Positions 478-25,074 of a stretch of DNA of 25,074 nt are shown here, one piece after another (the stretch's first letter is position 1; the number at the start of each line of letters is the position of its first letter). The notes under the pieces are model-generated. The model worked only from the letters and a program-made list of their open reading frames with translations, did not search any database and was not told the origin of the DNA. Made by a program: the position numbers and the translations under genes. Source of the stretch: a virus (taxonomy: Duplodnaviria > Heunggongvirae > Uroviricota > Caudoviricetes); IMG/VR virus record IMGVR_UViG_3300042894_003937, one strand, 5' to 3'.

Positions 478-490
478 CAAATATATATTA
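478..490 (-). promoter_or_regulatory. Overlapping TAATATATA and TAnnTTTG motifs (TAATATATATTTG)
   Basis: The minus strand reads TAATATATATTTG, 33 nt upstream of the ATG at 444. Confidence 0.5.
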
Positions 491-871
491 TTTTTCTATC
501 AGTTTCAATTCAATGAAATCTATTGGCTCGGTAATTGATGTCTTACTGAATGACTTTAAATCAAAGTAAAGTGTTTTTACTAAACTACCTTGTTTGTGTG
601 AGTAGATTGTTATTAAAACCGGTTCAGTTTCTACTTCAAATTCTACTATAAAATTTTGAAGGAAACTAACCAATCTATCTTTATAAGTATTTAAGTTATA
701 TGGTTTATAAACATAGGTTTCCGTACCAGGACTATTATCAATAATACGTATAAGGTGTTGTGTGTATGGCTCGGGATTTGTATAACGATTTGAATTATTA
801 GTCATAGTTAGATCGTTCAGATCATAATAATCTAAAAATTCTTTACTAAACGAAATTATTTCTTTTAACAT
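488..871 (-). CDS. Hypothetical protein
   Basis: 127-aa ORF, overlapping the upstream gene stop. Confidence 0.75.
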   Translation of the reverse strand: MLKEIISFSKEFLDYYDLNDLTMTNNSNRYTNPEPYTQHLIRIIDNSPGTETYVYKPYNLNTYKDRLVSFLQNFIVEFEVETEPVLITIYSHKQGSLVKTLYFDLKSFSKTSITEPIDFIELKLIEK

Positions 872-1074
872 ATTTTCTTTTTATCTAACATTTTTCTAAG
901 ATTGGTCTTCCATTGTTCTACTGTAATAAATCTATTTGTACTATACATATAAAATTCACCAGTATCATCTTTGACCTTCAAAAGATTATATGAATGTTCA
1001 TTAATAAAGGGTTTTGCCTCATACTTCTTACCTTTGGTAAGTCTATCTGATGGATTTATACAAACGAGTATCAT
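865..1074 (-). CDS. Small SH3-like family protein with degenerate C-terminal tag; start moved to 1074
   Basis: MILVCINPSDRLTKGKKYE...RFITVEQWK. The ATG at 1074 overlaps the TAA of the upstream ORF. Confidence 0.75.
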   Translation of the reverse strand: MILVCINPSDRLTKGKKYEAKPFINEHSYNLLKVKDDTGEFYMYSTNRFITVEQWKTNLRKMLDKKKIC

Positions 1075-1205
1075 TATAATAGTGTACATAATAAGATAAA
1101 TACTAACCAACCCCAACCGTCCAAGTCATTACAAGCCAATATTACTATACCTGCAACTAATGCAATTTGTAGTAAAGTTTTATTATCGTAGTTTTTATTT
1201 GACAT
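1074..1205 (-). CDS. 43-aa small membrane protein
   Basis: Manual translation: MSNKNYDNKTLLQIALVAGIVILACNDLDGWGWLVFILLCTLL, with a TAnnTTTG promoter 17 nt upstream. Confidence 0.7.
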   Translation of the reverse strand: MSNKNYDNKTLLQIALVAGIVILACNDLDGWGWLVFILLCTLL

Positions 1206-1222
1206 AGTTTATTTATTTTTTA

Positions 1223-1230
1223 CAAAGATA
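1223..1230 (-). promoter_or_regulatory. Bacteroidota -7 promoter element TATCTTTG
   Basis: Intergenic, upstream of the ATG at 1205. Confidence 0.65.
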
Positions 1231-1243
1231 GAAATTTAATTTA

Positions 1244-1426
1244 TTAAAACCAATAATCTTGTTTCATTTTTATAAGTCCGGTAGAGTGAGTGAGTTCTAT
1301 TCTGCCGAGTAATCGATTTATTTTTCTCATACGGTCATAGGTCTTTAAGTTCATACTTGCTCTAACAAGTTGTCCTTTTCTTAATCCTCCACTAAATTCA
1401 GTATTTCTAAACGGATTTCTAAACAT
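1244..1426 (-). CDS. Hypothetical protein with an internal tag-like helix
   Basis: 60 aa; contains DRMRKINRLLG. Confidence 0.6.
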   Translation of the reverse strand: MFRNPFRNTEFSGGLRKGQLVRASMNLKTYDRMRKINRLLGRIELTHSTGLIKMKQDYWF

Positions 1427-1634
1427 CTTTGATTACTTTTTTTATTTTTGTTCTACGAGTTGCAGATCTCCATTGTGATTTTACTTGGTTATAATCTGAT
1501 TCTGTAATTTCCATAGATATAGAACCGCCACATATACCAGAAGTTCTATATGATGCAGGTAAAGTACACATTGCACTATCCCAATTTACTGCGACTGATC
1601 CACCACATCTACTACATTGATAGTATTTATCCAT
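1419..1634 (-). CDS. Small Cys-rich (possible Zn-ribbon) protein with C-terminal tag
   Basis: CSRC...C...C; ends RRTKIKKVIKDV. Confidence 0.7.
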   Translation of the reverse strand: MDKYYQCSRCGGSVAVNWDSAMCTLPASYRTSGICGGSISMEITESDYNQVKSQWRSATRRTKIKKVIKDV

Positions 1635-1896
1635 TTAATATATTCTCTAAATTATAATCTCTCCATTGTTGTTTTGTCATAAATACTTTCGTTTGGTATA
1701 CATCTTTATTACCACCTCTATCATTAGATAAGTTACTGTAAAAGTAATTGTCTATTTTTAATGTATGTAGATAACTATGTGATACTTCACCTTTATACCA
1801 TTTATGTAAGGTTAGAAATCCTTCATATCCAGTATTATCAACACATATTAAATCTATCCTCTTTTGATCCATCTTAACCATATAAAGGTTGTCCAC
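1627..1896 (-). CDS. SH3-like family protein with C-terminal tag
   Basis: LICVDN...LTLHKWY...VFMTKQQWRDYNLENILNG. Confidence 0.75.
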   Translation of the reverse strand: MDNLYMVKMDQKRIDLICVDNTGYEGFLTLHKWYKGEVSHSYLHTLKIDNYFYSNLSNDRGGNKDVYQTKVFMTKQQWRDYNLENILNG

Positions 1897-1935
1897 GTTA
1901 GTAACCAGGTAATGAATTGTTTTTTAATTGACATA

Positions 1936-23564: not shown

Positions 23565-23841
23565 ATTTTAATATGTCATTAAGTTTCTCGTCTCTTATTT
23601 CGGCCTCTGTTTTTAGGTATTTACTTTTGTGTGGACAAAGTCCTGTACCAAACTTAACTAAGTGCCAACCATCAACATTTTTGGTAAAATCGACGGCATG
23701 ATTTTGTTTAGCATCAATTAGAACATCATAAGTTTCACCTTCGATAAGAGAACAATTTCCCCATACTCTATCAGTAAGTTCAATAGATTCTACACAAATC
23801 ATTTTAATAAATCTAGTCGGGTCTTTAGGAGCTTGCATCAT
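23563..23841 (-). CDS. SH3-like family protein with C-terminal tag
   Basis: MICVES...LIEGETYDV...YLKTEAEIRDEKLNDILK. Confidence 0.75.
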   Translation of the reverse strand: MMQAPKDPTRFIKMICVESIELTDRVWGNCSLIEGETYDVLIDAKQNHAVDFTKNVDGWHLVKFGTGLCPHKSKYLKTEAEIRDEKLNDILK

Positions 23842-23863
23842 AGTTATAAGTATTTAGTTTATA

Positions 23864-23871
23864 CAAAGATA
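23864..23871 (-). promoter_or_regulatory. Bacteroidota -7 element TATCTTTG
   Basis: 22 nt upstream of 23841. Confidence 0.65.
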
Positions 23872-23911
23872 CAAAAAATTATTTAATTGTATTGAAATCG
23901 AGAATAAATCT

Positions 23912-24103
23912 TTAATATTTTGCGGTTCCTTTAGCAAGATCATAAATATGCTTTGCAATTTGTAATGGCCAAACCAAAGGTCCCATTATTGCAAGTAATA
24001 CATGTCGAACCATTAAAGGTCTTTTTAATTTTATTAAATAAAACCAAATCATGTAGATAGACACTACAACTCCTATTAGATAATAAATTTCAAAATTAGT
24101 CAT
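23912..24103 (-). CDS. Small two-TM membrane protein
   Basis: YYLIGVVVSIYMIWFY; VLLAIMGPLVWPL. Confidence 0.7.
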   Translation of the reverse strand: MTNFEIYYLIGVVVSIYMIWFYLIKLKRPLMVRHVLLAIMGPLVWPLQIAKHIYDLAKGTAKY

Positions 24104-24353
24104 TTGGATATACTCTTGATTTAGATACGGTTACTACTATTTTAACATCATCCCCATTTACATCGAGGATTTCTCCATTTATACTTCCACTTGCAACAGG
24201 AAAATAGACCTTATCTCCTGATTTCATTTCGGGTGTAAAAAGTTTTTTCTTTCGTTCTGCTTTAATTGTATTGTATATTACCTTTATGATAAATACTGTC
24301 ATAAAAACTAGAAGTAATACCCACCCTACTAATGTAATTGTCTCTAAATTCAT
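24096..24353 (-). CDS. YajC-like single-TM protein; start moved to 24353
   Basis: TM helix, basic linker, then MKSGDKV...GSINGEILDVNGDDVKI...VSKSRV, as in YajC. Confidence 0.5.
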   Translation of the reverse strand: MNLETITLVGWVLLLVFMTVFIIKVIYNTIKAERKKKLFTPEMKSGDKVYFPVASGSINGEILDVNGDDVKIVVTVSKSRVYPND

Positions 24354-24372
24354 TTTATATTTTTTATTTATA

Positions 24373-24380
24373 CAAATATA
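24373..24380 (-). promoter_or_regulatory. Bacteroidota -7 element TATATTTG
   Basis: 19 nt upstream of 24353. Confidence 0.65.
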
Positions 24381-24390
24381 CAATTATTTT

Positions 24391-24978
24391 TTAACCTAAC
24401 AAACTTTTTAAAGCGTTATCTCTTTTTAATGTTTTTAATTCAGTGTCAATAGATTCCCTAACCTTTTCATAACCTATCATTGTTTCACTGTATATATTTT
24501 CGTGGTGTTGTAAGATATAACCCCATAGTTGAGAAAGTATTAGTGTACTTGTTTCTGTATTATCGGTATTATATGATGCACTTCCATTTGTAAATGCAGT
24601 ACCTGCAATAGTTTTTATAACGGTAAATGATGCTAGATTTGCTTTATTATCATAAACATATAATCTACTTCTAATTCTTAGAGTATTACCGGGGTTATAT
24701 AATTCTATTGTATATGCTTTTCTATCACTAATACCATAACTTCTTTCTTGTTCGATTTTATTTGTCCAGTCTTCAATTTTGATAGACTCTAATACATCTT
24801 TAAGTAAAGTATGTTCTGGATCAAAATCTTCCCATTTTGGAGTTTCATATTTTGGTATAGGTAAACGTAACCAGTCTTTATCTACTTCTTCTATAACTTT
24901 TTTCTTAGTTAGTGTATAGTTTTTATAAACAAAGTAGATTACTACTACAAATAAGATTATGTTTATTGTGTATATCAT
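24391..24978 (-). CDS. N-terminally membrane-anchored protein with C-terminal tag
   Basis: MIYTINIILFVVVIYFVYK; ends LKRDNALKSLLG. Confidence 0.8.
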   Translation of the reverse strand: MIYTINIILFVVVIYFVYKNYTLTKKKVIEEVDKDWLRLPIPKYETPKWEDFDPEHTLLKDVLESIKIEDWTNKIEQERSYGISDRKAYTIELYNPGNTLRIRSRLYVYDNKANLASFTVIKTIAGTAFTNGSASYNTDNTETSTLILSQLWGYILQHHENIYSETMIGYEKVRESIDTELKTLKRDNALKSLLG

Positions 24979-25074
24979 TTTAATATTTTTCTAATTTTAC
25001 GATCTCGTTCTTCAACTTTTTTATTCTCTTCTTCTTCTTTTAAAAAATCTTCATATTCTTTTGTATCATACATA
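24975..25074 (-). CDS. 3' end of an ORF (possibly partial) with C-terminal tag
   Basis: Manual translation: ...MYDTKEYEDFLKEEEENKKVEERDRKIRKILK*; ATGA overlap with the 24978 start. Confidence 0.65.
   Translation of the reverse strand, partial: MYDTKEYEDFLKEEEENKKVEERDRKIRKILK

Follow-up and report, generated by a model that had tools for sequence, protein, structure and literature searches.

In bacteriophage T4 internal proteins are loaded into the head by a capsid-targeting sequence (CTS) of 10 residues at the N-terminus, MKTYQEFIAE (PMC8442874), in which residues 4 and 7 serve targeting and residues 8 and 10 serve processing, and the prohead protease gp21 cuts after L/I-x-E (PMC9026906). 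The propeptide of T4 gp23 is 65 residues long (PMC5694885), and long N-terminal propeptides are carried by the head and ejection proteins of phiKZ, 201phi2-1 and SPN3US (PMC5694885, PMC7411985). The subject here is a stretch of 25,074 nucleotides of viral DNA (IMG/VR record IMGVR_UViG_3300042894_003937, Caudoviricetes), referred to over its whole length as the window, in which two short peptide motifs recur at the ends of the predicted proteins: an N-terminal one of the form M[KR][YH][LI]KxF(N)E, the N-tag, and a C-terminal one of the form RxxK[LI]xx[LI][LGI], the C-tag. The genes that carry them were assigned to transcription units of two classes, headed either by the box TAnnTTTG (early class) or by a TATATA-type box (late class). 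Promoters of the Bacteroidota primary sigma factor have a -7 TAnnTTTG element and, about 19-20 nt upstream of it, a -33 TTTG, and the T4 late promoter, TATAAATA, is gp55-dependent. Short C-terminal peptides are also known as recognition or tethering signals of Clp proteases, namely the ssrA tag, the C-terminus of MuA and the ClpX-binding tail of SspB, and as the sliding-clamp-binding tails of T4 gp43, gp33 and gp55.

Both tags exist, are portable across unrelated protein bodies, are selected as peptides and not as DNA, and are split by promoter class. The association was counted per transcription unit. Within the window the N-tag was found in 7 of 11 late units and in none of 16 early ones (p = 3.7e-4), and the C-tag in 1 of 11 late and 8 of 16 early units (p = 0.042). 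Two complete curated relatives were used for a genome-wide test: in LR756502 (642 kb, 973 gene calls) the N-tag occurred in 59/239 late and 0/78 early units (p = 1.4e-8) and the C-tag in 9/239 and 27/78 (p = 1.2e-11), and in LR745206 (635 kb) the corresponding figures were 53/214 and 1/91 (p = 1.9e-8) for the N-tag and 10/214 and 31/91 (p = 7.6e-11) for the C-tag. The association therefore holds in both genomes, and independence of tag and promoter class was seen in neither. Counted by gene, 81 N-tagged genes of LR756502 were late, none early and three unassigned (n=84), which makes 17% of its late-class genes N-tagged; in LR745206 66 were late and one early (n=77), and all 30 N-tagged genes of two related contigs, G001 and G002, were of the late class.

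An earlier note on this DNA had proposed a modular sorting system with two address labels. What stands of it is that both tags are real and portable and follow promoter class in the window and in the two complete relatives; packaging, cleavage, a partner and the timing of the promoter classes are steps that we infer. The note had placed every N-tagged gene in a unit headed by a late box, and all 12 are so placed, seven as unit heads and five operon-internally. It had also placed nearly all C-tagged genes in TAnnTTTG units with the gene at 22697 as an apparent exception, which proved to be the sole C-tagged gene in a late unit, and had rightly put the promoter of the genes at 24391 and 24975 beyond the window. 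Its observation that no open reading frame (ORF) carries both tags was likewise confirmed, 3.7 such genes being expected in the window under independence (P(0) = 0.024). Both tags were found on one gene only in three genomes, on a membrane protein with a marginal N-tag match, and on none in LR745206. This mutual exclusivity is real but adds little beyond the temporal split from which it follows: N-tags are confined to late units, and C-tags lie for the most part in early ones.

The window has a G+C content of 28% and about 60 genes, mostly small (60-62 in the gene list, depending on the filter). Its DNA is nearly complete in two lake-water metagenome runs and partial in runs of other studies, and no RNA run is among the sequencing runs listed as containing it. 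Megablast of the window against deposited phage genomes gave no near match, tblastn of the 22211 protein and of a 799-aa protein against the same genomes gave no match, and Pfam and PHROGs searches of the tagged window proteins returned no informative family. Homologs of the main N-tagged family number more than 140 in metagenomes, where the contigs that carry them reach 649 kb. The related IMG/VR contigs G001 (177 kb) and G002 (191 kb) encode a capsid protein of the T4 gp23 family, and by this protein the closest deposited relatives are the huge phages LR756502, LR745206, LR756504 (636 kb) and LR756501/3 (735 kb), followed by the Lak phages and Tenacibaculum phage PTm1. These huge phages are the 'Mahaphage' genomes for which Al-Shayeb et al. 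predicted Bacteroidetes hosts (PMC7162821). The window would be part of a very large T4-related Bacteroidota phage from lake water, of the 'Mahaphage' group and near the 635-642 kb genomes.

The two promoter classes emerged from the sequence without a preset motif, the unbiased k-mers enriched upstream of genes being ATATATA and (A)TCTTTG(TA). There are 15 TAnnTTTG boxes in the window, each heading a unit. The earlier note had taken TAnnTTTG for the -7 element of the Bacteroidota primary sigma factor and it behaves as such, a partner TTTG lying 23-24 nt upstream in 25 of 78 LR756502 cases with no such peak for the late box. Promoters of the E. coli sigma-70 type were tried and rejected, with 95 matches as against 124 in shuffled sequence. 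The late box was found in 72 of 114 upstream regions, where 3.8 were expected, and its distance from the ATG, taken as [AT]ATATATA, is bimodal in the relatives, with peaks at 4-6 nt and 18-26 nt; in the window the distances are 4-5, 16 and 21 nt. With a spacing of 4-6 nt the late mRNAs would be leaderless. In the early units of LR756502 and LR745206 there is a peak of TAnnTTTG 3-6 nt before the ATG, and leaderless mRNAs seem to be common in that class too. In G001 the late box stands at the head of the capsid, scaffold-protease and portal genes, and in the window at that of a tail-fibre gene; matches to a gp55-like late sigma (phrog_234) occur in four of the close relatives searched (E 2e-7 to 2e-5; in PTm1 no better than E 0.006), and the 14 control genomes gave none. 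The T4 gp55 sequence used singly as a query had no match in the relatives; it was the PHROG profile that matched. Judged by the genes in its company and by this sigma, the TATATA box is probably a late promoter, in agreement with the separate AT-rich late class of the earlier note.

The count of 12 N-tagged ORFs in that note was borne out by a six-frame scan of the window with M[KRIM][YHT][LIV]K.F, which found 11 at ORF starts and one, MMYLKRFNE at 9246, inside ORF 9219. All 12 are on the + strand, other frames gave no match, and only 0.002 such starts are expected from amino-acid composition in 61 genes. Three are imperfect (MMYLK at 9246, MRTIK at 17109 and MIYIK at 20578). Most belong to one paralog family with conserved FCExxLAYLxDxGF and W..VKDH.IPF blocks. 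The late box at 8796..8803, 5 nt before the ATG, heads a unit with the family members 8809..9249 (MKYLKPFNES) and, operon-internal, 9246..9668 (MMYLKRFNEA); 9678..9851 (MKYLKSFNEM) encodes 57 aa with an unrelated body and a weak KOW-like match. The box at 10736..10743, 4 nt before the ATG, heads 10748..11167 (MKYLKTFNEG), with 11167..11592 (MRYIKTFEAD) and 11592..12053 (MKYLKRFNES) operon-internal, all three of the family. Its remaining members are 17109..17558 (MRTIKLFEDF), which heads a late unit 4 nt after the box at 17097..17104, the operon-internal 18244..18738 (MKYLKTFEMI) and 22211..22672 (MRYLKRFNES), 5 nt after the box at 22198..22205. Three further genes have unrelated bodies, namely 19456..19791 (MKHLKQFESY, 111 aa; box at 19444..19451, 4 nt), 20578..21033 (MIYIKLFDNF, 151 aa; box at 20566..20573, 4 nt) and 21123..21380 (MKYIKLFENF, 85 aa; box at 21099..21106, 16 nt).

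Among the relatives, 14 N-tagged genes were found in G001, 16 in G002 and 84 in LR756502. A DNA pattern for the tag matched 69 times in LR745206, 34 in LR756504 and 15 in LR756500, which carries a variant N-tag, with 0-3 matches for a reversed control; it matched 0-1 times in the 735-kb phage, Lak-B5 and PTm1. The 735-kb phage and PTm1 have next to none of either tag, and among cultured relatives none carries the N-tag, PTm1 included. Tags are clustered in LR756502, where C-tags stand on 27 of the 57 genes of the last 20-kb bin (620-642 kb) and N-tags on 27 of the 95 genes of the first 40 kb. The regular expression undercounts N-tagged genes because looser tags exist in G001 (MSRIKKYEDFLNEG, MRLKKYSQFNES and MNYIKLFEDF) and in the window. 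The one in the window is at the N-terminus, MNIVKYSEFQYINEE, of the 799-aa late-class protein of 3421-5820 (+), which reads K-Y-x-x-F and then I-N-E; its gene lies 21 nt after the late box AATATATA at 3392..3399 (+). A DDASKDD repeat and two long hydrophobic segments rich in Gly/Ala are present in this protein, which could be a membrane-inserting ejection protein. A literature search found no published text with either tag string, and no title or abstract on huge phages and capsid targeting or propeptides described such tags.

By analogy with T4 the most plausible reading of the N-tag is that of a capsid-targeting propeptide with a hydrophobic-x-Glu protease site at its end. At position 4 all 12 window tags have L/I and all 84 of LR756502 have L/I/V, and position 7 is F/Y throughout, a conservation which is partly imposed by the regular expression but admitted no other residues when the neighbouring positions were left free. 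Hydrophobic-x-E with its first Glu at residues 8-13 was found in 63 of 84 LR756502 tags (75%) compared with 189 of 889 untagged N-termini (21%), and the residue after the tag Glu is mostly Ser. The gp23-family capsid protein of the relatives (PF07068, 97-102 bits) is encoded beside a 730-aa protease-scaffold fusion, in which Peptidase_S77 (PF03420) matched weakly at 18-20 bits, below the cut-off; the same gene order is found in PTm1, where the annotation names it so. With 39 [ILVF]-x-E sites the G001 scaffold ranks second among 114 proteins. It is encoded at 160745-162937 (-; locus L026 745-2937) and contains about 13 tandem 14-residue repeats, YSEY[ILV]AENLDKNI[AES], followed by EFAEEAK repeats, so that a protease site is predicted in every one of the tandem repeats. 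The G001 capsid protein reads SINE/NAYVNASN at the place of the T4 gp23 cut (slash), FLTE/AEIGGDHGYNATN. Small N-tagged proteins of G001 (95409-95912, +) and LR756502 (80294, +) carry N-x-S-N-T-A-G-M-G-x-V..AQ directly after the tag, a segment similar to the beginning of the capsid protein in its mature form (NASNVAGMGSVLAAQ in G001).

The strict C-tag, R..K[LI]..[LI][LGI] in the last 16 residues, was found in 10 of 62 window genes and in the short ORF 24975-25073, where about 0.009 were expected from composition, and the motif is 64-fold commoner at C-termini than inside window proteins. A relaxed motif gave 19-20 genes, so that the 'about 20' of the earlier note holds for the relaxed consensus and falls to 10-11 under the strict one. 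The early box TATATTTG at 12083..12090 (+) heads a five-gene unit, 12097-13184, in which all five genes are C-tagged: 12097..12225 (relaxed, ...KRKQAIRKLFGI), 12222..12437 (strict, ...IRDKKLNDLGI), 12434..12751 (relaxed, ...IRDNRITKLLQ), 12748..13008 (strict, ...LRDKKLEVILQSTSL) and 13005..13184 (strict, ...KRDMKLRQLGIK). On the - strand, the box TATCTTTG at 3333..3340 heads a unit from 3313 to 1244 with three relaxed tags, on 2829..3098 (...TREIKLNIITK), 1627..1881 (...WRDYNLENILNG) and 1419..1634 (...RRTKIKKVIKDV). The box TATATTTG at 15548..15555 (-), 18 nt before the ATG at 15529, heads a unit from 15529 to 13212 with three more, on 14804..15100 (relaxed, ...WREQQLNKII), 14067..14513 (strict, 148 aa, ...ERNEKLKELLG) and 13552..14067 (strict, 171 aa, ...LRELKLRQLLYEV), all on the - strand, and that at 22178..22185 (-, TATATTTG) heads 22140 to 21404 with one, on 21404..21679 (-, strict, ...IRNEKLEDLGV). 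Further strict-tagged genes lie behind TATATTTG at 10267..10274 (-), 3 nt before 10042..10263 (-, ...AREDKLNIILDE), and behind TATCTTTG at 23864..23871 (-), before 23563..23841 (-, ...IRDEKLNDILK). Strict tags are also carried by 10279..10518 (-, ...VREKKLNELGI), by 22697..22909 (+, ...LRDSKIDSILE), which comes after the N-tagged 22211 without a TAnnTTTG of its own, and by the short or partial ORF 24975..25073 (-, ...ERDRKIRKILK); relaxed ones are carried by 9852..10049 (-, ...FRKKQIDKLLSL), 23129..23536 (+, ...YRNAVLSVLGI) and 24391..24978 (-, ...KRDNALKSLLG; 195 aa with an N-terminal hydrophobic segment).

The motif is mainly terminal in the complete relatives too, with 96 terminal and 14 internal strict matches in LR756502 and 88 and 16 in LR745206. 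A cellular-type enzyme, a pirin-like double-cupin protein (1936-2607, -; PF02678 83 bits, PF17954 60 bits), lies inside the early unit of small C-tagged genes that ends at 1244, a putative host-takeover block. The early box TAATTTTG at 19982..19989 (+) stands before 20001-20462 (+), a 153-aa ORF in which an SH3-like module with a C-tag-like helix (VEWRERQIEKITKH, residues ~58-71) is mid-protein and is followed by 82 residues; either fusion of a tagged module to another domain or loss of a stop codon would account for this.

As to what might read the C-tag, true ClpP genes are present in LR756502, LR745206, G001 and G002 (2-3 per relative, 220-260 bits) and a ClpC-like double-AAA unfoldase of ~700 aa in LR756502, LR745206 and LR756504. 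The gene directly after one clpP ends in a C-tag or near-variant in G001 (e.g. 125108-126234), G002, LR756502 and LR745206, and the 735-kb phage and PTm1 have neither ClpP nor C-tag. The phyletic match is imperfect, and the phage ClpC/ClpP as the reader is only a lead.

The joint explanation that accounts best for these observations, and to which about an even chance is given, is a T4-related Bacteroidota phage with two promoter classes, an N-tag akin to the CTS and a C-tag read by one common partner. Early units would be transcribed from a host-type promoter with -33 TTTG and -7 TAnnTTTG, and late units from a T4-late-type T[AT]ATATATA that has no -35 element and lies 4-6 nt or ~20 nt before the ATG, many of the mRNAs being leaderless. 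A subset of the late proteins starts with a flexible peptide of 9-11 residues, M-[KR]-[YH]-[LI]-[KR]-x-[FY]-(x)-x-E, after which comes a small residue. As with the CTS, this peptide would dock the protein on the prohead scaffold core, a gp21-like prohead protease would cut it off after the Glu, and the cargo would remain inside the head, from which it might be ejected into the next host. A subset of the early proteins ends in an amphipathic helix of 10 residues, h-R-[DNE]-x-K-[LI]-x-x-[LI]-[LG]-x-COOH, in fixed register to the free C-terminus; it would be read by one common partner, for which the phage ClpC/ClpP protease is the first candidate, with the C-tag as degron or tether. An elaborated version of this picture would have a clade of 0.6-Mb phages with a two-address system, in which ~8% of genes, all late, carry a capsid-loading propeptide, with ~80 injected proteins including a SET-domain methyltransferase, and ~10%, mostly early, carry a C-helix read by the phage's own ClpC/ClpP, which would clear or organise the early proteome at the late switch; taken as a whole it is unlikely.

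Several points weigh against this explanation even in its simpler form. Eight of the 12 N-tagged window genes belong to the one paralog family, so that shared descent explains most of the window copies. Strict C-tags also occur in late-class units (14-15 per genome) and in units of unassigned class (26-36 per genome), and the gene calls and unit assignments themselves come from a simple home-made caller and regular-expression motifs. Head genes, prohead protease and late sigma were seen in the relatives only. A quarter of N-tags are without a clean hydrophobic-x-E ending. ClpP alone does not predict the C-tag, as LR756500 has ClpP and a single C-tag, and the search for a C-tag partner in this analysis found none. 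We know of no phage in which the number of cargo proteins approaches ~80 per genome. The N-tagged proteins have on average an acidic net charge, -3.1 per 100 residues, and in this they differ from the T4 internal proteins, which are highly basic (PMC8442874).

The acidity of the N-tagged proteins, and a number of cargo species that seems high for one head, would suit an N-tag that addresses its proteins to some other late destination, for example an assembly chaperone, the baseplate or tail, a site of lysis or in the membrane, or the phage Clp machinery acting through the N-terminus, for which this phage group has its own ClpC-like unfoldase and ClpP. The length of the tag, its M-K start, the hydrophobic residues at 4 and 7 and the hydrophobic-x-E end fit the T4 logic of targeting plus cleavage, however, and hydrophobic-x-E is repeated many times in the scaffold of a relative whose head module is of the T4 type. 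Another destination is accordingly thought improbable, at about the level of the elaborated version above.

A similarly low probability attaches to the C-tag being a self-association or stabilising helix, which would serve dimerisation or the capping of small domains and have no common reader. The tag is indeed a short amphipathic helix, with hydrophobic residues at -4, -1, +4, +7 and +8, and in an AlphaFold2 (AF2) model of the 12222-12437 protein (71 residues) a helix at residues 58-68, which is the tag, is appended with good confidence beside a small SH3-like barrel. Small early phage proteins are often oligomeric. Packing would explain less well than recognition at a binding site why the C-terminal register is strict (exactly one residue follows the 9-mer in 50 of 96 LR756502 proteins) and the R-[DNE]-x-K charges invariant, and the tag is found on enzymes and membrane proteins of very different size, with bodies ranging from 42 to 622 residues.

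Less probable again is that the tags are the conserved ends of two large, fast-evolving paralog families, structural and without address function, whose link with promoter class is that of family expression. The N-tagged family of the window with its conserved blocks speaks for such an explanation, as do the SH3-like barrel and the conserved F-x-x-x-x-x-R lead-in to the tag that many window C-tagged proteins have in common. When the first 14 residues were removed, the 84 N-tagged proteins of LR756502 fell into 78 BLASTP clusters, and C-tagged proteins stripped of the tag gave 95 clusters from 96 in LR756502 and 19 from 19 in the window; clustering of this kind misses remote homology among short, diverged proteins. 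The 'arbitrary cargo' of the earlier note is thus shown mainly by the relatives, the window being dominated by its one N-tagged family. Against this explanation, tags are also found on cellular folds with histories of their own: a SET domain (53 bits) on an N-tagged protein of G002, and a riboflavin kinase (80 bits) and a BtpA-family protein among the C-tagged proteins of LR756502. The 22211 protein was modelled by AF2 from an alignment of 76 sequences (mean predicted local distance difference test, pLDDT, of 76); its body is a folded alpha/beta domain, for which a fold search of the PDB and AlphaFold DB clusters gave no match (best template-modelling score ~0.35), and residues 1-9 are disordered at pLDDT <50. 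The N-tag is therefore the least ordered part of the model, yet it is among the most conserved stretches of the alignment, and the linker between tag and domain varies in length by ~25 residues. The C-tag keeps its register to the C-terminus on bodies of every size, and structural relatives of the 12222-12437 model match over the barrel only, the top ones being of 58-63 aa, which leaves the helix no room.

Weakest of all, and very improbable, is that the N-tag is an expression signal, with the first codons or nascent peptide of leaderless late mRNAs selected for translation initiation: the late box does stand 4-5 nt before the ATG in six of the seven unit-heading tagged genes, and tag codons are AT-rich, but synonymous codons within the tag vary visibly and as in any untagged N-terminus, tagged genes also occur at 20-36 nt spacing in the relatives (one in the window at 16 nt) and operon-internally without a box of their own (5/12 in the window, 39/84 in LR756502), most leaderless late genes are without the tag (in G001 only 5 of 35 genes at 4-6 nt spacing have it), early genes of LR756502 have a leaderless spacing peak and no N-tag, and the conservative K/R, L/I and F/Y exchanges together with the fixed Glu point to recognition of a peptide. 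An origin of the N-tag at the RNA level or by gene conversion was rejected on codon usage.

The remaining boxes of the window are as follows. Late boxes at 6922..6929 (+) and 15586..15593 (+) stand 21 nt before a collagen-like tail-fibre gene, 6951-8432, and 4 nt before the ATG at 15598 of an untagged 488-aa gene. Early boxes on the - strand are TATCTTTG at 1223..1230, 17 nt before gene 1074-1205, and at 6234..6241, before 5851-6213; TATATTTG at 6894..6901, before 6697-6867, at 19077..19084, before 18746-19057, and at 24373..24380, before 24096-24353; and two that diverge from late boxes, TATCTTTG at 8760..8767, before 8479-8742, from the box at 8796, and TATTTTTG at 10698..10705, before 10523-10687, from that at 10736. 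On the + strand TATCTTTG at 22917..22924 lies 5 nt before 22930-23142. Terminator-like hairpins mark unit ends. One with a T-run at 12041..12061 (+) stands between the late operon of N-tagged genes, 10748-12053, and the early operon of C-tagged ones, 12097-13184, both of which are on one strand, and two-way hairpins lie at 17068..17092, between gene 15598-17064 and the late box at 17097, and at 23537..23564, between the convergent genes 23129-23536 and 23563-23841. Upstream of gene 1-444, at 478-489 (-), a late and an early box overlap (TAATATATATTTG) and the class of the unit is ambiguous; the product of this gene has a signal-peptide-like start (MKSKIFGIILFLITFNVINSQ). A 105-aa gene at 19117-19434 (+), upstream of the N-tagged 19456, has neither promoter box and no assigned class, and is preceded by AAATATAAT, a weaker relative of the late box.

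This analysis contributes a test, by transcription unit, of tag against promoter class in two complete genomes, a codon test, the -33 element, the cleavage-motif repeats of the scaffold and the Clp lead. Should the N-tag be a signal for capsid loading, a sequence motif would be enough to pick out the proteins that uncultured megaphages package and possibly inject, some 80 per genome and most of them without an assigned function, and lists of hypothetical proteins would become testable candidates for effectors of host takeover and anti-defence; foreign proteins could also be put into large capsids with such a short, portable tag. The C-tag marks about one gene in ten, mostly small and early, as a putative client of one reader, and identifying that reader would show how a phage manages a hundred early proteins at once. 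The split between promoter classes provides a cheap, sequence-only assignment of temporal class in genomes that cannot be cultured.

Compared with known systems, the early class has both elements of the Bacteroidota primary-sigma promoter at the expected spacing. The late class is like the T4 late promoter in its AT-rich -10-type box without a -35 element, in the structural genes it drives and in the gp55-like protein of the relatives, and differs in its consensus, T[AT]ATATATA and not TATAAATA, and in a fixed 4-5 nt spacing that implies leaderless mRNAs. For the C-tag, the clamp-binding tails of T4 are likewise short hydrophobic C-terminal peptides on several unrelated proteins of a T4-type phage and are read by one hub protein; they occur on few proteins, of replication and late transcription, whereas the C-tag has another motif and is on ~10% of genes, mostly small and early. 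The ssrA, MuA and SspB peptides are also short, portable, at the extreme C-terminus and read by one machine in Clp systems, and this phage group has genes for ClpP and a ClpC-like unfoldase. In sequence, however, these peptides do not resemble the C-tag, which has a variable last residue and a conserved acidic position, and the Clp link here consists of the genes present and of a C-tagged gene adjoining clpP.

For the N-tag, phiKZ, 201phi2-1 and SPN3US are comparable as giant phages that load many head proteins, from which a diverged gp21 homolog removes propeptides after Glu, and in which paralogs can have identical N-termini; their propeptides differ in being mostly at least 100 residues long, without a single common short motif, and in the cleavage motif A/S/G-x-E. 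The T4 CTS differs in sequence (MKTYQEFIAE against MKYLKxFNE), in the handful of T4 genes that carry it against ~80 per genome here and in its basic rather than acidic cargo, and for the N-tag packaging and cleavage are what we infer from the likeness. That likeness lies in a start of ~10 residues that begins M-K, carries its key hydrophobic or aromatic residues at 4 and 7 and ends in a hydrophobic-x-Glu site of the gp21-type prohead protease. In both cases the peptide stands on late-class proteins whose bodies are unrelated, and the phage, here judged by its relatives, has a capsid of gp23 type and a scaffold core.

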